Shown: positions 4,972 through 35,764 of the stretch, in pieces
Position numbering within the stretch: the stretch's first letter is position 1
Layout: each line of letters opens with the position of its first letter
From: an uncultured Gammaproteobacteria bacterium
GTDB lineage: Bacteria > Patescibacteriota > Patescibacteriia > UBA2196 > GWA2-42-15
Reading direction: 5' to 3'
Length of the DNA: 35,764 bases
Assembly (NCBI GenBank): GCA_964628705.1
Contig: CAZVLW010000001.1
Span: forward strand, 3,298 to 39,061
Made by a program: the position numbers and the translations under genes
Notes under the pieces: model-generated
Databases searched by the model: none
The model's input: the letters and a program-made list of their open reading frames with translations, nothing else
Told to the model about the DNA's origin: nothing

Positions 4972-6876
4972 CTATTGAAAATACCACTCTATAATGTCTT
5001 TAAATACCGGCACGGCCACACTTGAACCCTCTCCCCCATTTTCAATTAAAATAGTCAACACAATTTGAGGTGATTCATAAGGCGCAAAACCAACAAACCA
5101 GGCATGTGGATCTTTATCTCCGCCGACCTGCGCAGTGCCCGTTTTGCCAGCTACTTGGATATCAAGCTGGTTTAAAGATTGTGCCGATCCTAAAAGGACT
5201 GTGGTTCTTAATCCTTGGCGAATAATATCTATATTTTCGGGTGATACAAAATTTTGACTGATGACTTGAATGTGCTGATAAATACCATTTTTTTCTTGCT
5301 CATCGCTGTCAATTTTTTTAAGAATATGTGGCCTATATAAAGTCCCTCTATTGGCAAGAGTGGCAATATAATTAGTCAACTGCAATGGGGTGAGTAAAAC
5401 ATCACCTTGACCAATAGCTATATGATAGGTATCTCCAATATACCAACTTTCTTCTTTAACACGTTTTTTCCATTCTTTACTGGGTAAAAATCCACTGGCT
5501 TCACTGGGCAAATCAATACCTAATTTTGTGCCTAAATTAAACTTTTTTGCATAATTTACAATTTTTTCCAAACCTAAACCCTCAAATTCATTATAGCCGC
5601 CCCCAATATAATAAAAAAAGGTATTAACTGACTGGCCGATAGCTTTGACCACATTAACTCTGCCATGGCCGCCAACTTTCCAGTCGGGGAAAAACCACTG
5701 GCCTACGCTAATCCCGCCAGTGCTTAAAAAAGTCTTATTTTTGTCAATAATACCTTCTTCAAGAGCAGCCAGAGCAACTAAAGGCTTAAAGGTTGAACCT
5801 GGGGGATAGCTGCCTGAAATAGCGCGGTTAAATAACGGATAGGTTGGGTCTTCGAGATAGTTTATATAAGCGGCATGTTCTATGCCGGCACTAAAAAAAT
5901 TACTGTCGAAATTGGGTAAGCTAACTAAAGCTAAAATATCACCATTGTTAGGATCCATAGCTATAGCTGAAGCACTAAATTTATCTGGCATTGATTGGAG
6001 TTGCTGGTGTAAGGATTGAGTTATTTTTTTTTGTAGTTCTAAGTCAATCGTTAAATAAATATCTTGCCCGCTTTGAGCGGGGATTTTGTTAAGCACTTTT
6101 TTACTTTTACCAGTAGCGTCTATTTCCACCTCTTGTTTGCCTTCAATGCCACGTAGATAATTTTCATAATAAAGCTCAACACCGTCTTTGCCGATAGTAT
6201 CATTTATATCATAATTTTCCTGTTGATACCTTGTTAATTCAGCTTGATTTATTTTACCTACGTAGCCCAAAACGTGCGACAAAGCGGCCCCTTCAAGGTA
6301 TTGACGTTGTGGTTCATGCGCTAACTCTATGCCGGATAAATCATGGCTGGCTATTTTAAGTGATACAGCTTGTTTGTGGTTAAAATTGTCTGAGAGTTGA
6401 ATTTTTTGAAAACCCTCTTGGTGTTGTTTAAATTTGCTGATGATCTGATTAGCATCTAAGGGTAAGTGGTGTGATAATAATTCTGCTATGTGTGATAGCT
6501 CTTGTTTGTCATGAGGTAAATCACTGGGTGTAAAATAAAGTGTGAAAGTGGGAATATTTTTAACTAAAGTGTTTCCAAAACGATCATATATAATACCCCT
6601 TTCAGCTTTAATGGGCTCTATTCGGATACGATTTCCTTCAGCTACAGAATTATAATAACTACCGTGCACTATCTGAATCCAAAAAGCACGCCCTAATATA
6701 GCCAAACAGCTCAAACTGATAATTAAAATAATCAGCATTATTTTACCTGGAGGTAAGCTAAAGTTGACCCTTTCCAACTGGCCTGTTAAATCAAAAAAAC
6801 TACCTTCATGGCGGCGAGTATTGTAGCCGTCAACTTTTTTGATAGCTTGGGGTATATGAAAAGGATTGTCAGCCAT
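4972..6876 (-). CDS. mrdA: Penicillin-binding protein 2 (elongasome transpeptidase)
   Basis: N-terminal TM helix and PBP dimer domain. Transpeptidase motifs are STFK, SVN and KTGTA. Located directly downstream of mreBCD. Confidence 0.9.
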   Translation of the reverse strand: MADNPFHIPQAIKKVDGYNTRRHEGSFFDLTGQLERVNFSLPPGKIMLIILIISLSCLAILGRAFWIQIVHGSYYNSVAEGNRIRIEPIKAERGIIYDRFGNTLVKNIPTFTLYFTPSDLPHDKQELSHIAELLSHHLPLDANQIISKFKQHQEGFQKIQLSDNFNHKQAVSLKIASHDLSGIELAHEPQRQYLEGAALSHVLGYVGKINQAELTRYQQENYDINDTIGKDGVELYYENYLRGIEGKQEVEIDATGKSKKVLNKIPAQSGQDIYLTIDLELQKKITQSLHQQLQSMPDKFSASAIAMDPNNGDILALVSLPNFDSNFFSAGIEHAAYINYLEDPTYPLFNRAISGSYPPGSTFKPLVALAALEEGIIDKNKTFLSTGGISVGQWFFPDWKVGGHGRVNVVKAIGQSVNTFFYYIGGGYNEFEGLGLEKIVNYAKKFNLGTKLGIDLPSEASGFLPSKEWKKRVKEESWYIGDTYHIAIGQGDVLLTPLQLTNYIATLANRGTLYRPHILKKIDSDEQEKNGIYQHIQVISQNFVSPENIDIIRQGLRTTVLLGSAQSLNQLDIQVAGKTGTAQVGGDKDPHAWFVGFAPYESPQIVLTILIENGGEGSSVAVPVFKDIIEWYFQ

Positions 6877-6881
6877 AAAAA

Positions 6882-7391
6882 TTATCTGAGTTCACCTTTA
6901 AGTTTAACTTTAGTATTGTGAGATAAGAAGACGCTTAGCAATAATACAATTATGTGTAAAATATTTTGCCATATAAATGGCACACCAAAACGTTTTAAAT
7001 ATAGTCCCAAATTAAAGGTTTGTGCTAAAGGTAGGGCAAAAGTAACATATAATATATACCATAATAATACTGATGCCAATGAACAAAAAGCAAGTGAAAA
7101 CAAACTTTTTCCCCGAAGCAGATTATTTTTTAAAAAATAAATAAAGTAAACCTCAACTACAAAAATTAATATAAAAAAACCGAAAAAACTACTTGCGTAT
7201 AAATCCAAAACAAGCCCGACAATCAATCCATTAAATAAAGCTATGTCAAAATTGTAAAAAAAAGTTATAAAAAAAATAACCAATAGGGGTAAATTTATAT
7301 AAATATTCAAATTTCCCAAGAAAGGCAAAAATGACAAGTTTAAAAAAACTGCCATGAGACTAGCTGTTAAGCTCCAAATATATTTTGACAT
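6882..7391 (-). CDS. mreD: Rod shape-determining protein MreD
   Basis: A 169-aa polytopic membrane protein sitting between mreC and PBP2. Confidence 0.75.
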   Translation of the reverse strand: MSKYIWSLTASLMAVFLNLSFLPFLGNLNIYINLPLLVIFFITFFYNFDIALFNGLIVGLVLDLYASSFFGFFILIFVVEVYFIYFLKNNLLRGKSLFSLAFCSLASVLLWYILYVTFALPLAQTFNLGLYLKRFGVPFIWQNILHIIVLLLSVFLSHNTKVKLKGELR

Positions 7392-7411
7392 AATACAAAA
7401 TTATAAATAAA

Positions 7412-8218
7412 TTATTGCGGTATAATCACGGTTACTAATGATAGATAACGAGCATCAATTAGAGGCTCGGCTAAAGCCTTTTGCCACAGCTCTTCTTGTT
7501 GGTTTTCAACTTTGGTAATTTCTCCAATAATTAAACCGCTTGGTATGTCTTTTTCAAAACCTGACGTGGCTACAATATCTCCCTCTTCTATGGCTACCCC
7601 TTTGGGAAGCATAGTAATATTTAAACTAAGATTATGCTCGCCTTGGCAGATGCCATAAATAACCTGTGATGCTTTGACCATAACTGAAAGCTCTGCTTGG
7701 CTTGAAACCAAAAGCTCAATATAAGAGATATCTTGTTGTGCTTGATTAATCTTGCCGATCATCACACCTTGATCTGTAGTGACAGCTAAACCGTCGCGCA
7801 ATCCGTGAAGAGTGCCCTTATTGATAATTAATTCACCACTGGCAGAGCCATAATTGGTAGCTAATACTCTAGCTATTTGATAGTTGTAATTAACATCTTC
7901 TAAAAATTGAATTTCTTTTTTTAACCATTGATTTTCTTTTTTAAGGGCTGATAGCTGTAAATTTTGTTTGTAAAAATTTACTATTTTTTGATTTAACTCC
8001 AAATTTCTTTGATAATACCGTTTGGCATCTATATAAATATAAATATTTTTGGCAATTTTTTTTGACAAAAAACTTACGCCGGAAACAACTGGATTTGAAA
8101 CTACGCGTAAATAGCTATGAATTGAATTTGACAACCCACTGTGTAGTAGAATAGCTAAAATAATAATGGCTACAACCAAAGTAAAAGTGGCTCTGCTGGT
8201 GATATTAATTTGGCGCAT
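7412..8218 (-). CDS. mreC: Rod shape-determining protein MreC
   Basis: N-terminal TM helix, a coiled coil (LELNQKIVNFYKQNLQLSALKKENQWLKKEIQFLE) and a C-terminal beta-barrel region. Operon position supports the call. Confidence 0.85.
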   Translation of the reverse strand: MRQINITSRATFTLVVAIIILAILLHSGLSNSIHSYLRVVSNPVVSGVSFLSKKIAKNIYIYIDAKRYYQRNLELNQKIVNFYKQNLQLSALKKENQWLKKEIQFLEDVNYNYQIARVLATNYGSASGELIINKGTLHGLRDGLAVTTDQGVMIGKINQAQQDISYIELLVSSQAELSVMVKASQVIYGICQGEHNLSLNITMLPKGVAIEEGDIVATSGFEKDIPSGLIIGEITKVENQQEELWQKALAEPLIDARYLSLVTVIIPQ

Positions 8219-8451: not shown

Positions 8452-9492
8452 CTATCTGGCTGATGGAATAATAACATCTTGAAGATTGTCTATATCTTCC
8501 AAAATCAGACCTGCCCCGCGCACCACACAGGTCAATGGATCATCTATCACAGTCACTGGCACCTTAGTTTCTTTGCGTACCAACTCATCAAAACCACGGA
8601 GTAAAGCACCGCCTCCGGAAAGCACCAATCCCCTTTTTTTAATATCTGAGACCAGCTCTGGCGGAGTTTCCTCTAAGGTATTTTTAATGTTACTAACAAT
8701 ATGTTTAAATGAACTGGAAATGGCGTCTTTAACTTCAGCTTCTGTGATTTTTACTTCCTTAGGCAGACCACTTAAAATATCTCGGCCACTCACTTGTAAC
8801 TCTTCTGGTTTTTCACTGGGATAAACCGTGCCTAATTTTATTTTAATTTTTTCAGCTGTTATATCACCAATCAATAGATTAAAACTTTCACGGATATATT
8901 GTTGAATATTTTTATTGAAAATATCGCCGGCAGTTAAAATTGACTTCCAAGCCACCACCCCTGAAAGTGAAATAACGGCGATTTGTGTCAGCCCGCCTCC
9001 AATATCAACAATAAAATTGCCGGTTGATTCTTGGACTGGCATACGTGCGCCAATAGCAGCCGCCATGGGCTCTTCAACCAAAAAAACCTCTCTGGCGCCA
9101 GCACCCAAAGCGGCGTCTTCAACAGCTTTCCTTTCTACCTCTGTAACATCCAAAGGTATGCCAATAACAACTCGCGGCTTGGTGCTTAAAATACCCATCC
9201 TTTCATTTAAAATTTTTTCAATATAATATTTAAGCATTTTCTCAGATGCTTCAAAATCTGAAATAGTCCCCTCTACTAAGGGCTTAGAGGCAATAATATG
9301 CGATGGGGTTTTACCTATCATACGCTTAGCATCATCACCTACGGCTACAATCTGATCAGTTCTGGTGTTAATAGCCACAACTGATGGCTCATTGATTAAA
9401 ATACCTTTATCTTTAACATAAATCAAGGTACTTGAAGTACCTAAATCTACACCTAAATCTTTGGAAAAATTGGAAAAAAACTTTTTTAACAT
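8452..9492 (-). CDS. mreB: Rod shape-determining actin homolog MreB
   Basis: Actin-fold phosphate and adenosine motifs are DLGVDLGTSSTL, IVDIGGGLTQIAV and LVLSGGGALLRG. Confidence 0.95.
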   Translation of the reverse strand: MLKKFFSNFSKDLGVDLGTSSTLIYVKDKGILINEPSVVAINTRTDQIVAVGDDAKRMIGKTPSHIIASKPLVEGTISDFEASEKMLKYYIEKILNERMGILSTKPRVVIGIPLDVTEVERKAVEDAALGAGAREVFLVEEPMAAAIGARMPVQESTGNFIVDIGGGLTQIAVISLSGVVAWKSILTAGDIFNKNIQQYIRESFNLLIGDITAEKIKIKLGTVYPSEKPEELQVSGRDILSGLPKEVKITEAEVKDAISSSFKHIVSNIKNTLEETPPELVSDIKKRGLVLSGGGALLRGFDELVRKETKVPVTVIDDPLTCVVRGAGLILEDIDNLQDVIIPSAR

Positions 9493-18001: not shown

Positions 18002-19009
18002 CTATTTCATAGCCAAAATAGATCTTTTGTAAGCGGCTAAATTTTCTAAAGCAATACCAGTGCCTTTAGCTACACATAAAAGCGCGTCATCTGCGTTATA
18101 AGCCGGCACGCCGATTGACTGAGAAATAAATTCATCCATATTTCTTAGAAGTGAAGTGCCACCGGAAAGCACCATACCTTTTTCCATAATGTCAGCCGAA
18201 AGTTCAGGTGGAGTATTAAAAAGCACATGTTTAATAGCTGAAATTAATCCGGCTAATTCATCTTGGAGTGCCTCTGTCACATCATCAGATGAAACCGTGG
18301 CAATGCGCGGCAAACCGCTGACCATATCCCTGCCTTTAACTTCAGTAGTTAACTTTTTATCCAAATAAAGCGCTGAGCCAACTTTGATTTTTATTTGTTC
18401 AGCTGATCGTTCCCCGACTGCTAAATTGTATTTTTTTCTGACATATTCCTGGATGGCTGTATCAAATTTATTGCCCCCAATGTGGACTGAATCATTAGTA
18501 ACAATACCGCCAAGAGAAATAACGGCTACTTCAGAAGTGCCACCCCCCATATCAATAATCATATGACCCGAAGCTGAACCAATTGGCACATTGGAACCAA
18601 TAGCTGCGGCGATTGGCTCTTTAATAATATAAGCGGCTTTGGCTCCGGCAGCCAAAGTGGCATCAATGGCGGCGCGCCTTTCAGTTGAAGTCACTCCACC
18701 CGGCACGGCAATCATGACTTCCGGGCGAAAAATCCTAAATCCACCAATAGCTTTGTTGACAAAATACCTCAGCATAGCTTCAGTTGTTTTATAATCAGCA
18801 ATAACGCCATCTTTAAGCGGCTTGGAGGCCATAATAGTGTCCGGCGTGCGTCCAATCATTTGTTTAGCTTCATCACCCACGGCTAAAACTTTTTTGTCTA
18901 CCAAAGAATAAGCCACGACTGATGGCTCATTAATGATAATACCTTTACCGGGGACGTAAACCAAGGTGGTGGTAGTGCCCAGATCAATAGCAATTTTTTT
19001 AAAAAACAT
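18002..19009 (-). CDS. mreB: Second MreB/Mbl-family actin homolog (stand-alone paralog)
   Basis: Actin-fold motifs are IAIDLGTTTTLVY, IIDMGGGTSEVAV and MVLSGGTSLLRN. By hand count it is clearly more GC-rich than the operonic mreB. Confidence 0.92.
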   Translation of the reverse strand: MFFKKIAIDLGTTTTLVYVPGKGIIINEPSVVAYSLVDKKVLAVGDEAKQMIGRTPDTIMASKPLKDGVIADYKTTEAMLRYFVNKAIGGFRIFRPEVMIAVPGGVTSTERRAAIDATLAAGAKAAYIIKEPIAAAIGSNVPIGSASGHMIIDMGGGTSEVAVISLGGIVTNDSVHIGGNKFDTAIQEYVRKKYNLAVGERSAEQIKIKVGSALYLDKKLTTEVKGRDMVSGLPRIATVSSDDVTEALQDELAGLISAIKHVLFNTPPELSADIMEKGMVLSGGTSLLRNMDEFISQSIGVPAYNADDALLCVAKGTGIALENLAAYKRSILAMK

Positions 19010-30791: not shown

Positions 30792-31748
30792 TTAATTTTT
30801 TAATTGGTGCTCCCCAACTATCCTTTCAACTTCATCCAAATTTTTGGTTTGAACTATTTTCATTTTTAACTCTTTTACATTGGGATGGCCTTTTAGATAA
30901 GCTGCCATAGATTTGCGCAAAGCTATAAAAGGCTTGGAGTCACTAAAATACTTATTATATAGTCTGGCATGCTCTAACATAACTTGGAGTTTTATCTTAA
31001 GAGATAAATTTGATTTATCAATATGCGGATTGAAGAACCAAGGATTGCTGATAGCCGCCCTGCCTATCATAACACCGTCAATATTATATTTTTGGCATTT
31101 TAGTTCGGCGTCTTCAAGATTAAAAATATCCCCATTACCAATTACAAGGGTGGGGCTATTTTTTGCTAATTTTTTAATTTTATCCACCTCTTCCCAATGG
31201 GCGGGCACTTTTGACATTTCTCGGCGAGTGCGTAAATGCATAATAATAGCCGCAGGTGAAGTTTCTAATAAATTTTTAGTCCACTCAATGGTTTGGATTT
31301 TATTAAATCCCAAACGTGTTTTAACGCTAACCGGCAATTGTGGAGCACCTGCTTGAGTAGCTTGTATTATTTGCTGGGCAAGTTTGGGATGTTTGATTAA
31401 GGCTGCACCTGATCCTTGTTTGTTGATATTTTTATCAGGACAGCCCATATTTATATCAATCCCGTCAAAACCAAGCTTATCTAAAAGCTTGGCTGTTTTA
31501 TAATAATTTTCAGGATTAGCCCCAAAAATTTGTGCTACAATAGGATGCTCTTGCTCGCCAAACTCCAAATTAGGCATCAATCTTTCCCGCCCTTCAGACA
31601 TCAATCCATCAACAGAAGTAAATTCAGTCCAAATTACATCAGCTTTACCGTATTTAGCCACCAACTCCCGATAAGCTCTGTTGGTTATATCTTCCATGGG
31701 TGCTAAACATAAAATGGGTTTTTTAAATTTCTGCCAAAAATTATTCAT
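30792..31748 (-). CDS. dus: tRNA-dihydrouridine synthase
   Basis: LAPMEDITNRAYR, DINMGCP, VSVKTRLG, HLRTR and VMIGRAAISNPWFF are all Dus-family signatures. The start overlaps the upstream ORF by 8 nt. Confidence 0.9.
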   Translation of the reverse strand: MNNFWQKFKKPILCLAPMEDITNRAYRELVAKYGKADVIWTEFTSVDGLMSEGRERLMPNLEFGEQEHPIVAQIFGANPENYYKTAKLLDKLGFDGIDINMGCPDKNINKQGSGAALIKHPKLAQQIIQATQAGAPQLPVSVKTRLGFNKIQTIEWTKNLLETSPAAIIMHLRTRREMSKVPAHWEEVDKIKKLAKNSPTLVIGNGDIFNLEDAELKCQKYNIDGVMIGRAAISNPWFFNPHIDKSNLSLKIKLQVMLEHARLYNKYFSDSKPFIALRKSMAAYLKGHPNVKELKMKIVQTKNLDEVERIVGEHQLKN

Positions 31749-32229
31749 ACTTTATAATATTAATTTTACGTCTTAACCAAAACATACCTACCACTGGTAA
31801 AAGGATTGTGCTTAGCATAGCAAAAAATAACCACCAAGTCCAGCCGACTTGGGACGTAATTTTTATTTTAACTCCGGGAGAAGCGCCTAAATCACCAGCT
31901 TGTTTATTTTTAGCAAAGATTTTTAATTGATAATCATAATTGCCGGGCAATAATTTTTGGTATCTTAAATTAATTCTTTTTTGTGCCAAAGGTTCAAGAT
32001 AGAATGAATCTTGCCTGAGATGAATATTTTGAGTGTGTGGCTCTATTTTAAGCTGATATATAGCTGGCTGCTTACCAATGTTGGTAATTAAAATTTCTTG
32101 CTCAATGTTTTGTAAACTCTTAGCTTGGATAGTAATATGTGCGGGTGTGGCTTGAACACCTAAAGCCAAACAAGACATAGGGTGTAAAAAAACAATCACC
32201 AGTATAACTGTTTTTAATAATCTTTTCAT
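31741..32229 (-). CDS. Small secreted beta-rich protein with a C-terminal TM anchor (unknown family)
   Basis: N-terminal signal peptide and a ~100-aa beta-rich body. C-terminal WWLFFAMLSTILLPVVGMFWL helix followed by an RRK stop-transfer sequence. Confidence 0.65.
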   Translation of the reverse strand: MKRLLKTVILVIVFLHPMSCLALGVQATPAHITIQAKSLQNIEQEILITNIGKQPAIYQLKIEPHTQNIHLRQDSFYLEPLAQKRINLRYQKLLPGNYDYQLKIFAKNKQAGDLGASPGVKIKITSQVGWTWWLFFAMLSTILLPVVGMFWLRRKINIIKYE

Positions 32230-32258: not shown

Positions 32259-34040
32259 TTATTTCTCTGCCCAAAAGATAAGATTGGCTGATTTTACACC
32301 ACTAACTAAATAACTGGTTGGCACTTGAAGCGAAAGAATATAATCTTGACTTTGCAGAGCTGGTAATTCATCGCCAAAAGAAGCCCATGGGTGAGTATTA
32401 ATAGTTAAGTTATTTTTAAACAAATCATCTCCATTTAAGGTGGCTGAAAGGGTAACCTGATTTGAACTTTGATTGCTTAACTCTATACTGGCTGTAGCTA
32501 TATCACCAGAAGATAGTTGACCAAAATTGATATGACTTTTGTTGACTAATAAAGCTATACTATCCCCCGCTACATCACCGTTTTGTGATATGATTACTTC
32601 GGCTTGCAGATTAATGGGTTCACTTGAGAGACTACCTATATGTAAGGTAACTTGATTGCTTCTGACATACCCCGGCATATCTAAATATGCGCGGTGAAGG
32701 CCGTTTTGATCAAAGCTTAATTGCAGCTGGCCCAAATTGTCAGTTGTCTTTAAATCTTCATCCAACATAATTTCAGCTTGGTTAAAATTCTGCCAACTCC
32801 CGTCTTGATAATATTCAGCGGTTAAAGTGACGGGTTGATTGATTTTTAGGGTTGTTTTATCTGCTCTAAGTCGAGTCGGCTGCCAACCCCATTCGCCAAA
32901 ATACCACAGCAATTTGTCATCTGAATTTAGAGAATAATCAGCCGCTCCAACTGAGGGTGAATTAAAATTGACAAAATACATCCAGCCAGTATTACCGCTT
33001 GCTGTATGATTTTTGATAGATGATAAATATGGGCCAAAATCAGTTTTTTCTATAGTATAATTATATCCGCACTCATTGGCTGCTTGTTCAATGGCAGACA
33101 GGGCTGTGTCTGCCTCTGATAGCTCAATCTCACAAATAGTTTGGCTTGGCCCCTCAATGCGTAAATGAATATCTAAATTGTGACTGTCTTCAAAATAGTC
33201 TAGCGGCAAAGTTTGACTACTTAAAGCCAAGGACGCGAAGCTACTCATGGCTTTATTATTGAAATTTGGGTCACTCTCGGGGTCTACCCACCAAAAGCCG
33301 CCATCTGCATCCTGTAGAGAGTTGATAAAATCTATCGGACTTTGGTTTTGACTCCAAGAGCTAAGATCATATTCGGCTTTATTTAAAGCTAAAACCACCC
33401 AAGCAGTAGAGCCGCTATCAGAGTCACCAGCTTGGCTAAATGGGAAACCTCCATCACTATTTTGAAGACTGGCTAAATAATCAAAAGCATTTTGAATGGC
33501 TTGGCTTTGCACAGATACCCCACTTTCCAAAAGTGCCATTATAGCGGCTGCCGTATCATTGCTATCACTTGCGCCGCCCACTTGATAACCCCAGCCTCCA
33601 TCATTATTTTGGTGACTTAAAATATAATCTTGAATATTGTGAAGCATTTGGGTATCATTTTGATTGGCTGAATGGAAGGCCAAGAGTGACCAAAAATCAT
33701 CGTTGATTAAGTCTTTTTCACCCATTTGTCCGTCTTGATAATAAGTTTTGAGTTTTTTAAGATAGTCAATATTACCAAAGGTATGGGGATTTTTGCCAGC
33801 CGCTACGGTTGCCAAGATAATTTTGGCATAATCGGTAGCCAGCTGTCCATTCACTGACTTGATGTGGTCTAAATCTAAATCATCTTCACCCAAAGCAAGT
33901 AGGGCTTGCGTGGTCCATGCGTCTTGAGGTTGTTTTTTAAGATAATCAACAGCTTGGTTAATATCTGCCTGAGAATAGAAGGGTAAACTCAGCATAAGCG
34001 CAAGGGCTAAAAAGAAAAAAAACTTTTTTATTTGAAACAT
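32259..34040 (-). CDS. Secreted transcobalamin-like protein: alpha/alpha-toroid (prenyltransferase-like) repeats + DUF4430-like domain + Ig-like C-terminus
   Basis: Signal peptide ending FYSQA. The toroid repeats read QNNDGGWGYQVGGASDSNDTAAAIMAL, QNSDGGFPFSQAGDSDSGSTAWVVLAL and QDADGGFWW. The DUF4430-like block reads HLRIEGPSQTICE...FGPYLSSI...GWMYFVNFNSPSVGAADYSLNSDDKLLWYFG. Confidence 0.7.
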   Translation of the reverse strand: MFQIKKFFFFLALALMLSLPFYSQADINQAVDYLKKQPQDAWTTQALLALGEDDLDLDHIKSVNGQLATDYAKIILATVAAGKNPHTFGNIDYLKKLKTYYQDGQMGEKDLINDDFWSLLAFHSANQNDTQMLHNIQDYILSHQNNDGGWGYQVGGASDSNDTAAAIMALLESGVSVQSQAIQNAFDYLASLQNSDGGFPFSQAGDSDSGSTAWVVLALNKAEYDLSSWSQNQSPIDFINSLQDADGGFWWVDPESDPNFNNKAMSSFASLALSSQTLPLDYFEDSHNLDIHLRIEGPSQTICEIELSEADTALSAIEQAANECGYNYTIEKTDFGPYLSSIKNHTASGNTGWMYFVNFNSPSVGAADYSLNSDDKLLWYFGEWGWQPTRLRADKTTLKINQPVTLTAEYYQDGSWQNFNQAEIMLDEDLKTTDNLGQLQLSFDQNGLHRAYLDMPGYVRSNQVTLHIGSLSSEPINLQAEVIISQNGDVAGDSIALLVNKSHINFGQLSSGDIATASIELSNQSSNQVTLSATLNGDDLFKNNLTINTHPWASFGDELPALQSQDYILSLQVPTSYLVSGVKSANLIFWAEK

Positions 34041-34065
34041 AAAAAAATCTCCCTTTTCGAGGGAG
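34041..34065 (-). terminator. Expression-platform hairpin: terminator plus SD sequestor abutting the start codon
   Basis: On the minus strand the sequence is CUCCCU-CGAAA-AGGGAG-AUUUUUUU-AUG. The 3' arm is the only SD-like sequence for the gene. Confidence 0.6.
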
Positions 34066-34268: not shown

Positions 34269-34297
34269 ATATTAATTTAGATGATTAAAAATTGCAA
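34269..34297 (-). promoter_or_regulatory. Sigma70-type promoter TTGCAA-17-TAATAT for the riboswitch-led operon
   Basis: The -35 hexamer is at 34292-34297. The spacer is 17 nt. The -10 hexamer is the reverse complement of 34269-34274. Confidence 0.45.
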
Positions 34298-34314: not shown

Positions 34315-34548
34315 TTAATGATGGTTGGCGTAGTTTTCTTCAGCCATCTGCCTAAACTGCTCGGCTCCCTTTTTATCTACAAACCACTCTAACATTTGTG
34401 AATCTGTTAACTCTTTTTCATTAATACCCAACTCTTTAGCTGCAAGCTGACGATTTCTCTGGTTGGTAGCTATCTCAATTTGTTTTTGATTATAATCTGC
34501 TAAATTATTTGGATCAACATATATATCTGGGGGGACTTCTGGTGGCAT
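34315..34548 (-). CDS. Small hypothetical protein immediately downstream of the PIN gene (possible cognate antitoxin/regulator)
   Basis: Its ATG lies 3 nt after the PIN stop. It is 77 aa, with a possible HTH-like stretch RQLAAKELGINEKELT. No family recognised. Confidence 0.5.
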   Translation of the reverse strand: MPPEVPPDIYVDPNNLADYNQKQIEIATNQRNRQLAAKELGINEKELTDSQMLEWFVDKKGAEQFRQMAEENYANHH

Positions 34549-34551
34549 AAA

Positions 34552-34959
34552 TTAAATACAATTTATAATTATTTTATAAGCTTTAGAGGGGGTAGTAATT
34601 TTTAAACCTCTAAATCCATTTAAATCCAATAAGTGGTGGTCGTTGGAAACTAATAAATTAGCTTTGGCTGCTAAAGCACAAGATATGAGCTTATTATCCT
34701 CGGGGTCTTCTCGCACCACTATTACTCGCGGTGTTTTGTTGGTTTTATTTTTATCTTTAAATATCTGATTGAGTTTTATCATTTTTTTACCAGCGGCTTT
34801 TCCAATATTAGATAAAATAAGATTAGCTTCTTTAAGTATAGCATGGCTCCACATTAAATCAATTTTACCCCGTTTAGCTAATTGAATTAATTTTGCTGAA
34901 AAGCTATTTTTGTTAAAACTCGTGGCCACTAATAAGTTGGTGTCAATAACTATCTTCAT
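34552..34959 (-). CDS. PIN-domain ribonuclease, putative toxin (PIN_3/TIGR00305-like)
   Basis: Conserved acidic residues appear in IVIDTNLL, REDPEDNKLISCA and LLVSNDHHLL. Confidence 0.8.
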   Translation of the reverse strand: MKIVIDTNLLVATSFNKNSFSAKLIQLAKRGKIDLMWSHAILKEANLILSNIGKAAGKKMIKLNQIFKDKNKTNKTPRVIVVREDPEDNKLISCALAAKANLLVSNDHHLLDLNGFRGLKITTPSKAYKIIINCI

Positions 34960-34977: not shown

Positions 34978-35764
34978 TTATTGCTGAGTGAAATAAACAG
35001 GTATTTCTAAAGCATTGTCATTTTGCGGCAAACCTGAAGGGTTGGCCTTTTGTAAAATCAAAGAACCTCTATTACTCACAAAAGTGTCAACTGAAAAAAT
35101 TAAAGTGGCGCTGAAATCAACAAACTCTTCGGTCATCCATTCATCCTCGGCCTCAGCATAACCTTCAGCAATGATTTTACCATCCCAATCTGTTAAAATT
35201 ACAGGGAAGGTTGCCTCAAAAAACCAATTTCCTTTAGCTTGTCCCGTGACTTGAAGAGGACTGGTAATTTTTTGATTGGGCTTTGGGTTATCAAGTTGAA
35301 TAAGATCTAAAAGCTCATTCGTATTACCTATATTTTCAGTAAAAGTTTTGCCATCAGGTGTGGAACATTGACGCGGATAGCTCTCCATAACTGTGTAACC
35401 TGCTTCAATACACTCTTTAAAAGAAGAGATATCTAAAAAATCATCATCGGGGATATTATCATCTTGGCAAATTATCTGCCAATTTTTTAGTCGTGAGAAT
35501 TGCTGGCATTGTTGGCTCAATAAATCTGGCGAAATAACTGGACATTTGGCTACTTCTTCATTAATACTATTATAATAAATGGAACCACCCCCATCAAGCT
35601 GACTATCTACTTTGATATATTTATCATTGATAGAAACTTGAGCGACGTTTTGCTTAGAGCAATAGCTTTGCGCTGTTGAGCTTAAATCCGAAGCTAAATC
35701 GCCATCTTGGCTAGATGGTATAAAATAAGCCACAACCGACCCTAAAACCAATAATACAGCTACC
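34978..35764 (-). CDS. Gmad2 Ig-like domain protein, 5' end outside the window
   Basis: The C-terminal ITSPLQVTGQAKGNWFFEATFPVILTDWDGKIIAEGYAEAEDEWMTEEFVDFSATL matches the Gmad2 pattern. The frame stays open to the window edge through a TM-like segment. Confidence 0.7.
   Translation of the reverse strand, partial: VAVLLVLGSVVAYFIPSSQDGDLASDLSSTAQSYCSKQNVAQVSINDKYIKVDSQLDGGGSIYYNSINEEVAKCPVISPDLLSQQCQQFSRLKNWQIICQDDNIPDDDFLDISSFKECIEAGYTVMESYPRQCSTPDGKTFTENIGNTNELLDLIQLDNPKPNQKITSPLQVTGQAKGNWFFEATFPVILTDWDGKIIAEGYAEAEDEWMTEEFVDFSATLIFSVDTFVSNRGSLILQKANPSGLPQNDNALEIPVYFTQQ

Follow-up and report, generated by a model that had tools for sequence, protein, structure and literature searches.

The window analyzed here, a stretch of 35,764 nucleotides from a bacterium of the Patescibacteria lineage, contains a gene for a secreted protein of 593 amino acids (32259..34040 including the stop codon, minus strand, ATG start). 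This protein is predicted to be built like the vitamin B12 carriers transcobalamin (TC), haptocorrin (HC), and intrinsic factor (IF), and its gene follows an adenosylcobalamin (AdoCbl) riboswitch. Given this carrier-like build and a genuine B12 riboswitch, capture of B12 outside the cell is the most likely function, and the protein is probably a corrinoid-capture surface protein repressed by B12. The earlier note on this DNA proposed an extracellular corrinoid-scavenging receptor, an interpretation that is supported as far as computation reaches.

The protein begins with a predicted cleavable signal peptide (amino acids 1-25, 33966..34040, minus strand), read by inspection. This segment, MFQIKKFFFFLALALMLSLPFYSQA, is followed by D and consists of an n-region with KK, a hydrophobic core, and a small-x-small motif, with cleavage predicted after SQA. 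Amino acids 2-17 form a helix in the AlphaFold2 model. Because the signal peptide contains no Cys, the protein is not a lipoprotein. Next comes an α/α toroid of 12 helices (amino acids 27-285, 33186..33962, minus strand), delimited by Pfam matches and the model, with three QxxDGG(W/F)...SDxxxTA repeats: HQNNDGGWGYQVGGASDSNDTAAA at amino acids 143-166, LQNSDGGFPFSQAGDSDSGSTAW at 192-214, and a third repeat at 242-267, which has LQDADGGFWW at 242-251. Pfam matches to the toroid span amino acids ~116-253 and include Prenyltrans (E = 5.2e-10), SQHop_cyclase_C (E = 1.8e-8), and SQHop_cyclase_N (E = 2.6e-7). In the alignment of the protein with 45 homologues, the family-invariant toroid residues concentrate in the repeats.

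The toroid is followed by a DUF4430/SLBB β-grasp domain (Pfam PF14478; amino acids 288-386, 32883..33179, minus strand). The match to PF14478 covers amino acids 312-382 and profile positions 3-71 of 72, with E = 6.9e-12 and 46.1 bits against a cutoff of 23.8. C303, C324, and W353 of this domain are invariant in the family alignment, and G352, Y355, N358, D368, and Y369 are at least 90% conserved. Two immunoglobulin (Ig)-like β-sandwiches form the C-terminal part. The first one (amino acids 389-468, 32637..32876, minus strand) is defined by AlphaFold2 strands with a predicted local distance difference test score (pLDDT) above 90, and a family search with it gave no significant match. The second one (amino acids 495-593, 32262..32558, minus strand), assigned from Pfam and the model, is of the Cep192/HYDIN (PapD-like) type; the Pfam Cep192_D4 match at amino acids 495-544 is weak (E = 6.6e-5) and under the cutoff.

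The AlphaFold2 model has a mean pLDDT of 88.6 and a predicted TM-score (pTM) of 0.57. It contains 12 helices at amino acids 27-273, an α/β domain at 291-383, and β-sandwiches at 389-468 and 497-592, the latter two joined by a disordered linker (471-494). Thus, the open reading frame (ORF), Pfam, and AlphaFold2 data confirmed every part that the earlier note had read from the sequence alone, namely a 593-amino acid ORF with a signal peptide, three toroid repeats, a DUF4430 block, and an Ig-like tail. The placement of the central block in DUF4430, in particular, was borne out by the PF14478 match. Among the Pfam families named in that note, Prenyltrans, SQHop_cyclase, and DUF4430 were found in the protein and Cobalamin_bind (PF01122) was not, with no match at E ≤ 1.

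The likeness to the B12 carriers is clearest at the level of fold. A Foldseek search of the PDB with the AlphaFold2 model gave TC, HC, or IF structures at all of ranks 1-15, with E-values from 7.9e-11 to 5.5e-9, in agreement with the transcobalamin-like two-domain architecture that had been proposed. The alignments with these carriers comprise 413-431 columns and therefore cover both domains. The next ranks are occupied by farnesyltransferase-β, drimenyl-diphosphate synthase, and squalene-hopene cyclase (SHC), for which the toroid alone was matched. Judged from the model, the overall fold is transcobalamin-like. The relative pose of the domains is not defined by the model because of its pTM of 0.57.

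At the sequence level, membership in the transcobalamin family is demonstrable for the β-domain only. The profile of the family matches the TC β-domain (5no0, E = 2.1e-4) and residues 332-402 of full-length TC (E = 3.1e-3). A search of PDB sequences with the single sequence found transcobalamin at E = 0.29, and the family profile was needed for significance.

The toroid was compared with cyclases as well. Curated cutoffs of the enzyme families were not reached: TIGR01787 scored 39.4 bits against 322.7 and TIGR01507 scored 31.3 against 431.1, with the repeat motif alone matching. SHC (631 amino acids) was matched in two separate regions of its chain, 47-123 and 460-592, whereas the 593-amino acid protein has one toroid. 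The SHC stretch DVDDTA, which we take to be the catalytic DxDD motif, aligns to DSNDTA (amino acids 159-164) in a local segment scoring -0.3 bits; in this low-scoring alignment the family-invariant Asn161 sits at the SHC Asp position. The NCBIfam family named 'SCO2321 family membrane protein' gave a partial match (E = 6e-23) far under its cutoff.

The leader of the gene contains an AdoCbl riboswitch aptamer (Rfam RF01482, clan CL00101; 34105..34265, minus strand), detected by covariance model over the full model (1-149 of 149) with E = 1.9e-10 and 67.2 bits against a gathering score of 50. It lies on the strand of the gene, with 64 nucleotides (nt) between the aptamer end and the ATG, and the leader folds much more stably than shuffled sequence (z = -4.9). 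The cobalamin-riboswitch-like leader suspected in the earlier note is thus a genuine RF01482 match, and it is also kept upstream across the family (see below). A candidate σ70-type promoter, TTGCAA-17 nt-TAATAT (34269..34297, minus strand), was located by eye and ends 3 nt before the riboswitch match; with 8 of 12 consensus positions it is below the scan threshold of 9 of 12 and constitutes weak evidence.

Between the aptamer and the start codon, a terminator scan identified the expression platform (34041..34065, minus strand), consisting of the hairpin CUCCCU-CGAAA-AGGGAG (34049-34065) and the following AUUUUUUU. The 3' arm of this hairpin, AGGGAG, is the likely Shine-Dalgarno sequence, separated from the ATG by the 8-nt spacer AUUUUUUU. 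No other Shine-Dalgarno-like sequence is present, and formation of the hairpin could therefore stop transcription and at the same time hide the ribosome-binding site. The Rfam alignment assigns CUUCGAGG to the loop (L13) of the 3' hairpin of the aptamer; this loop is complementary to CCCUCGAA in the terminator 5' arm, and the CUUCGAGG/CCCUCGAA pairing is present in the minimum free energy fold of the truncated leader. These sequence features lead us to infer an OFF switch of the classical kind, in which the loop would be held within the aptamer and the terminator/sequestrator would form when AdoCbl is bound, and the loop would invade the terminator when the ligand is absent. A near-identical platform hairpin (CTCCCTCGA/CTCCCTTGA...GGGAG and a T-run) was found in seven related loci (L001, L006, L009, L010, L013, L014, and L020), whose proteins are only ~43-46% identical to the window protein.

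These related loci come from a scan of one genome per GTDB species, in which at least 376 species genomes encode a relative of the 593-amino acid protein; the best 80 species-level loci were analyzed. Individual loci are herein referred to by L numbers (L001 and so on). Only 19 of 73 loci were recognized by a regular expression for the core of the riboswitch, and a covariance model built from five riboswitches of the family was used instead with a cutoff of E ≤ 0.01. By this model, a riboswitch lies upstream of the gene on the coding strand in 61 of the 80 loci (65 at E ≤ 0.1), and in three of the loci without a match, under 140 nt of sequence is available upstream. Rfam itself finds the upstream aptamer in L001, L003, L004, and L006, and the family model also finds a riboswitch in L005, L088, and L089. 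With at least 61 of 80 loci carrying the riboswitch, its association with the gene is a property of the family and not an accident of the window.

In total, 432 homologues at E ≤ 1e-5 were found among the candidates scored. The best 120 are mostly ~560-620 amino acids long, have the same Pfam content, and belong nearly all to Patescibacteria lineages. Most are named 'DUF4430 domain-containing protein', the others 'prenyltransferase/squalene oxidase repeat-containing protein' or 'hypothetical protein'. The best 80 loci all come from metagenome-assembled genomes of the type found in the Candidate Phyla Radiation (CPR): Falkow-, Buchanan-, Komeili-, Doudna-, Nealson-, and Harrisonbacteria and Parcubacteria. 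A few automatically named bins have implausible labels. Several genomes annotated by third parties (L009, L013, L014, L027, L034, and others), labeled 'uncultured Gammaproteobacteria' or 'Saccharibacteria', contain typical Parcubacteria-type loci, and their organism labels look doubtful. The named relatives of the window's prolyl-tRNA synthetase are from Patescibacteria, with ~56-60% identity to Gracilibacteria and Roizmanbacteria entries. At E ≤ 1e-30, the family comprises 1,581 cluster representatives (50% identity), including shorter, longer, and multi-toroid variants. The giant proteins P0448 (2038 amino acids), P0461 (2052 amino acids), and P0497 (2325 amino acids) are matched by the family profile in 5-12 separate stretches and appear, by sequence, to carry multiple toroid modules.

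The gene directly downstream encodes a partner of 162 amino acids (31741..32229, minus strand), in which a signal peptide precedes an Ig-like ectodomain and a transmembrane anchor at the C-terminus; it is herein referred to as the Ig-TM protein. It is homologous to the gene product following the orthologue in L001 and L003-L006 (BLASTP E = 1e-10 to 3e-19). Hidden Markov models of the components were built one by one and then run over all 80 loci; 74 of these have room for the Ig-TM partner, 62 have enough downstream sequence for the further genes, and 47 are flanked fully. The Ig-TM partner was found directly downstream of the toroid-DUF4430 gene in 70 of the 74 loci. Homology links its ectodomain to the last Ig-like domain in the 593-amino acid protein (hhalign 89.6%, E = 1.9e-6, 77 columns), and the Ig-TM protein may serve to tether the secreted protein to the membrane. 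A gene for Dus, a tRNA-dihydrouridine synthase (30792..31748, minus strand), has its start 8 nt ahead of the Ig-TM stop codon; the two genes are probably transcribed together, and Dus may come under riboswitch control by read-through. Such an arrangement of Dus next to the Ig-TM partner was found in none of the 80 related loci.

On five homologue contigs, the cassette consists of the toroid-DUF4430 protein, a ~170-amino acid protein, a ~150-amino acid DUF4430 protein, and a ~178-amino acid DUF6580 protein, and in three of the five it lies immediately after a ribonucleotide reductase (RNR) gene and a CobA/BtuR gene. Among the 62 loci with enough downstream sequence, the small DUF4430 gene and the DUF6580 gene were each found in 32 and both together in 31; DUF6580 was not found in the other 30. 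The window locus is of the type with only the binder and the Ig-TM partner. RNR and/or CobA occur within 6 kb in 16 of the 47 fully flanked loci, that is, in 16 of 26 with DUF6580 and in 0 of 21 without it. The neighboring RNR scores above the NCBIfam cutoff for vitamin B12-dependent RNR (1185.7 bits against 961) and also passes TIGR02504, and the neighboring CobA passes TIGR00708. Deoxyribonucleotide synthesis in these relatives appears to rest on the B12-dependent RNR adjoining the cassette. Additionally, the gene for NrdR, the repressor of RNR genes, lies directly upstream of the riboswitch, ~860 nt before the binder gene, in 16 loci (for example, L079 5132..5635), which links the locus to deoxyribonucleotide synthesis also where no RNR gene adjoins it.

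The earlier note remarked that no recognizable BtuFCD, ECF-CbrT (ECF, energy-coupling factor), or TonB component lies beside the gene, and this holds for the window: when 24 of the larger ORFs were searched against Pfam, they either had no match or matched families with housekeeping or other functions unrelated to transport. Clustering of neighbor families within ±5 kb in the 80 loci likewise revealed no recurrent ABC ATPase or EcfT-like family. In loci with only the binder and its partner, no alternative transporter was found among the clustered neighbors, and only housekeeping synteny was seen (FtsA/FtsZ, NrdR, RF-2, YbeY).

The relatives offer a candidate answer to how the ligand would cross the membrane, namely the membrane-anchored DUF4430 protein and the DUF6580 protein encoded in half of the loci. 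In the small DUF4430 proteins, a copy of the β-domain (hhalign 98.3%) is anchored to the membrane at the N-terminus. DUF6580, named 'putative transport protein' by NCBI, was modeled for the relatives with a pLDDT of 92.2 and a pTM of 0.85, and its top eight fold matches in the PDB are all S-components of ECF transporters, including the 4huq S chain, RibU, PanT, ThiT, FolT, and others. These matches extend over the full length (~170 columns) with TM-scores of 0.51-0.68. The Pfam family ECF-ribofla_trS matches DUF6580 at E = 0.052. A search of the DUF6580 sequence against solved structures gave as its best result an aquaporin at E = 0.1, which is noise, and no NCBIfam model matched. As modeled, the six helices of the membrane protein DUF6580 adopt the ECF S-component fold. 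The homologies of the Ig-like and β-domains, together with the DUF6580 fold, suggest a relay from the tethered transcobalamin-like receptor via the anchored β-domain protein to DUF6580. The DUF4430-DUF6580 pair can sit apart from the binder: in L087 (4236..7243) it stands alone, without the big binder, flanked by two genes for NT5C-family 5'-nucleotidases and a flavodoxin gene, and a riboswitch search at this pair found none. The absence of the pair from a window of 36 kb is therefore uninformative.

Two further kinds of genes accompany the cassette in some relatives. An extra toroid-only gene is located upstream of the main gene in L004 (6409..7665, equivalent to L010 4403..5662) and L012 (2497..3714), and further such genes are found in L008 (237..1193) and L049 (2090..3043). 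The gene in L004/L010 and that in L012 have their own second riboswitch copy. The toroid-only protein of L004 (332 amino acids) has a Tat-like signal and a C-terminal transmembrane anchor, and the toroid-only protein partially matches the 'SCO2321 family membrane protein' model (E = 8.5e-18, under the cutoff). A conserved protein of ~150 amino acids is encoded 3' of the cassette in 23 loci (for example, L004 11370..11822 and L006 11369..11809); it has a coiled-coil-like N-terminal half and one transmembrane helix and matches no known family.

Taken together, these data suggest the following scheme. At low intracellular AdoCbl, the leader would be antiterminated, the Shine-Dalgarno sequence exposed, and the operon expressed. 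The 593-amino acid protein would be exported and its signal peptide cleaved. Cobalamin or another corrinoid would then be bound between the toroid and the DUF4430 β-grasp domain, as in TC, IF, and HC, with the two C-terminal Ig-like domains serving as a stalk. The last of these domains probably pairs with its paralogue, the co-transcribed Ig-TM protein, which would hold the binder on the surface of an organism that has no outer membrane. For hand-off and translocation, the likely means in about half of the relatives would be the single-DUF4430 protein anchored in the membrane and DUF6580. The imported corrinoid would be adenosylated by CobA and then used by the class II (B12-dependent) RNR, both of them often encoded nearby. 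For the genome of the window, the hand-off and translocation parts, CobA, and RNR must be encoded elsewhere, if they exist. The analysis itself shows the domains, the resemblance in fold, the presence of the riboswitch, and the conservation of the gene neighborhoods, whereas the identity of the ligand, the sandwich mode of binding, the tethering, the hand-off, and the switching mechanism are inferred.

Several points weigh against corrinoid capture and import by this system. In the fold alignments with TC, the root-mean-square deviation is about 23 Å and the TM-scores are 0.25-0.44, the domains matching individually, and the B12-sandwiching geometry of the holo carriers is not reproduced in the AlphaFold2 model. 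By family profile, the toroid leads to SHC (E = 5e-23) and not to the TC α-domain, in line with the missing Cobalamin_bind match. The fold E-values of DUF6580 are weak (0.024-0.8), and neither BtuM nor CbrT is among its listed matches. No transporter, CobA, or B12-dependent enzyme was found among 24 of the larger ORFs of the window. In the literature searched, no binding or transport experiment was found for any bacterial DUF4430 protein. Finally, a related split α/β pair of Lactobacillus sakei was argued to scavenge heme, not B12 (bioRxiv 10.1101/864751).

This last point leads to the alternative that the protein binds another tetrapyrrole, either heme or a precursor such as cobinamide or cobyric acid, and acts in iron/heme acquisition or precursor salvage. 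For the L. sakei pair, Lsa1839/Lsa1840, a link with heme uptake was drawn from deletion of the operon and from docking (bioRxiv 10.1101/864751), and 'B12 or its precursors' is the wording of Burroughs et al. (PMC1796856). CobA, which adjoins the cassette in relatives, also acts on incomplete corrinoids. However, the gene is controlled by an AdoCbl riboswitch and not by an iron/heme regulator, both here and in at least 61 of the 80 relatives, and the recurrent neighbors are B12-dependent RNR, CobA, and NrdR, with no heme-related gene recurring nearby in the 80 loci. CPR genomes are also not known to finish corrinoid synthesis from precursors, which counts against this alternative. A heme-scavenging role as such was rejected as fitting poorly with riboswitch control and with this neighborhood, and binding of any other tetrapyrrole is, on the whole, unlikely.

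It is very unlikely that the secreted binder sequesters B12 without importing it, whether to withhold it from neighbors or a host or for storage or buffering. Such a role would explain a window without a transporter, and in about half of the loci, among them that of the window, the binder and the Ig-TM partner stand alone (30 of 62 lack DUF6580). Haptocorrin is a precedent for a binder without a direct role in uptake. Repression by B12, however, suits a need-driven acquisition gene; small CPR genomes relying on class II RNR need import; and the 36-kb window says little here, with the DUF4430-DUF6580 module able to be encoded apart, as in L087. An extracellular enzyme of the terpene-cyclase/prenyltransferase type, or a structural protein of the envelope, with the DUF4430 and Ig-like domains as accessories, would account for the strongest sequence matches (SHC and drimenyl-diphosphate synthase) and for the partial SCO2321 match, itself far under the cutoff. 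Against this stand scores far below the enzyme family cutoffs, a single toroid against two SHC regions, and, as a weak point from a low-scoring alignment, the invariant Asn161 at the SHC Asp position. Moreover, secretion places the protein away from isoprenoid diphosphate substrates, and riboswitch control and the B12-related neighbors would be left unexplained. The cyclase/prenyltransferase role was rejected on these grounds, and an enzymatic or structural function is hardly credible. Capture of corrinoids at the cell surface thus remains the preferred reading.

CPR bacteria have tiny genomes with almost no cofactor synthesis and are thought to live off other cells. A widespread capture module marked by a riboswitch gives a concrete, testable handle on B12 dependency in these bacteria, and testing it would be the first experimental check of the transcobalamin-like scavenger prediction made in 2007. 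If DUF6580 is a permease, it would represent a new family of B12 transporters. For the window, the annotation 'DUF4430 domain-containing protein' can be refined to a probable corrinoid-binding surface protein with a membrane tether. A broader proposal, held more tentatively and judged possible rather than probable, is an undescribed, lineage-wide, riboswitch-controlled corrinoid uptake pathway in Patescibacteria, comprising the Ig-tethered receptor, the anchored β-domain protein, a solitary DUF6580 permease without ECF ATPase, CobA, and class II RNR.

The window has further genes of note. Immediately upstream of the riboswitch promoter region, a 77-amino acid ORF (34315..34548, minus strand) and a gene for a PIN-domain protein (PF13470, E = 9e-17; 34552..34959, minus strand) are 3 nt apart and look like a toxin-antitoxin pair. 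Near the window edge, 34978..35751 (minus strand) encodes a 257-amino acid protein whose N-terminal half is rich in Cys and which contains a Gmad2 Ig-like domain (PF10648, E = 2.9e-13). MreB is represented by two full-length paralogues (each ~E = 1e-130), encoded at 8452..9492 and 18002..19009 (both minus strand). Together with MreC, MreD, and a PBP2-type transpeptidase at 4972..8218, they make up a complete rod-shape system in a CPR-type genome.

The concept of a transcobalamin-like bacterial B12 scavenger is not new, having been predicted in 2007 (PMC1796856). Burroughs, Balaji, Iyer & Aravind (2007; Biol Direct 2:4, PMC1796856) defined the SLBB superfamily and described bacterial secreted or surface proteins in which a toroid is fused to a transcobalamin-type SLBB domain, some of them with Ig-fold domains, as predicted B12 scavengers. 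These proteins are often encoded in operons with a second SLBB paralogue, in organisms lacking B12 synthesis; riboswitches are not mentioned (PMC1796856). The window protein fits their description. Their set, however, comes from Firmicutes, planctomycetes, and euryarchaea, with CbiO/CbiQ-type (ECF) genes and Gram-positive wall anchors, whereas the window belongs to Patescibacteria; its family is partnered by the Ig-TM protein and in relatives also by DUF6580, without a recurrent ABC ATPase or EcfT gene nearby. The CPR-specific gene cassette appears to be undescribed: a literature search found nothing on DUF6580, on cobalamin riboswitches of Patescibacteria, on cobalamin uptake in CPR, or on the cassette itself. 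The combination of a putative Ig-TM tether with a putative DUF6580 permease, without an ECF module, could be the new part.

The L. sakei proteins Lsa1839/Lsa1840 are likewise extracellular TC α- and β-like proteins encoded beside an S-component-type membrane protein, as in the cassette of the relatives (bioRxiv 10.1101/864751). They differ in being separate proteins, in having a full ECF module (Lsa1836-1838), and in their proposed ligand, heme; in the window, a single protein unites both domains, an ECF module is not seen, and control is by an AdoCbl riboswitch. For the membrane step, BtuM is a solitary S-component-like B12 importer that works without an ECF module (PMC6072759), and some BioY proteins import biotin without one (PMC11109136). 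The 2024 paper on the S-component fold does not treat the DUF6580 family (PMC11109136). BtuM (PMC6072759) and ECF-CbrT (PMC5997447), both small B12 importers of the membrane, share the general fold of the DUF6580 proteins of relatives, and BtuM resembles them further in lacking an ECF module. The sequences of BtuM and CbrT do not match DUF6580, which itself is absent from the window. BtuM is found mostly in proteobacteria and is co-localized with BtuB, not with a TC-like binder.

The B12-capture lipoprotein BtuG of Bacteroides is alike in function only. It is a β-propeller that binds B12 with high affinity at the cell surface, is encoded in riboswitch-controlled uptake loci, and works with the outer-membrane BtuB; its fold is unrelated, and its envelope type differs from that of the window system. 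Eukaryotic TCN2, IF, and HC, the best fold matches in the PDB, are also secreted and agree in their order of domains, with a 12-helix α/α toroid at the N-terminus and a β-grasp (DUF4430/SLBB) domain at the C-terminus. In the window protein, the toroid lacks a match to the Cobalamin_bind model and retains terpene-cyclase-like QW/DxxDTA-type repeats, two extra Ig-like domains follow the β-domain, and the interdomain pose of the model differs from that of the holo carrier structures. In transcobalamin, a His ligates cobalt, whereas the window family has no invariant His that could serve as a cobalt ligand. The window gene, moreover, is controlled by a riboswitch, and its putative receptor or tether is the Ig-TM protein rather than CD320 or cubilin. 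If the broader proposal of a lineage-wide uptake pathway is correct, this family would also be the closest prokaryotic counterpart of animal TC, IF, and HC in domain order and fold, and a tractable model for the origin of their carrier architecture.

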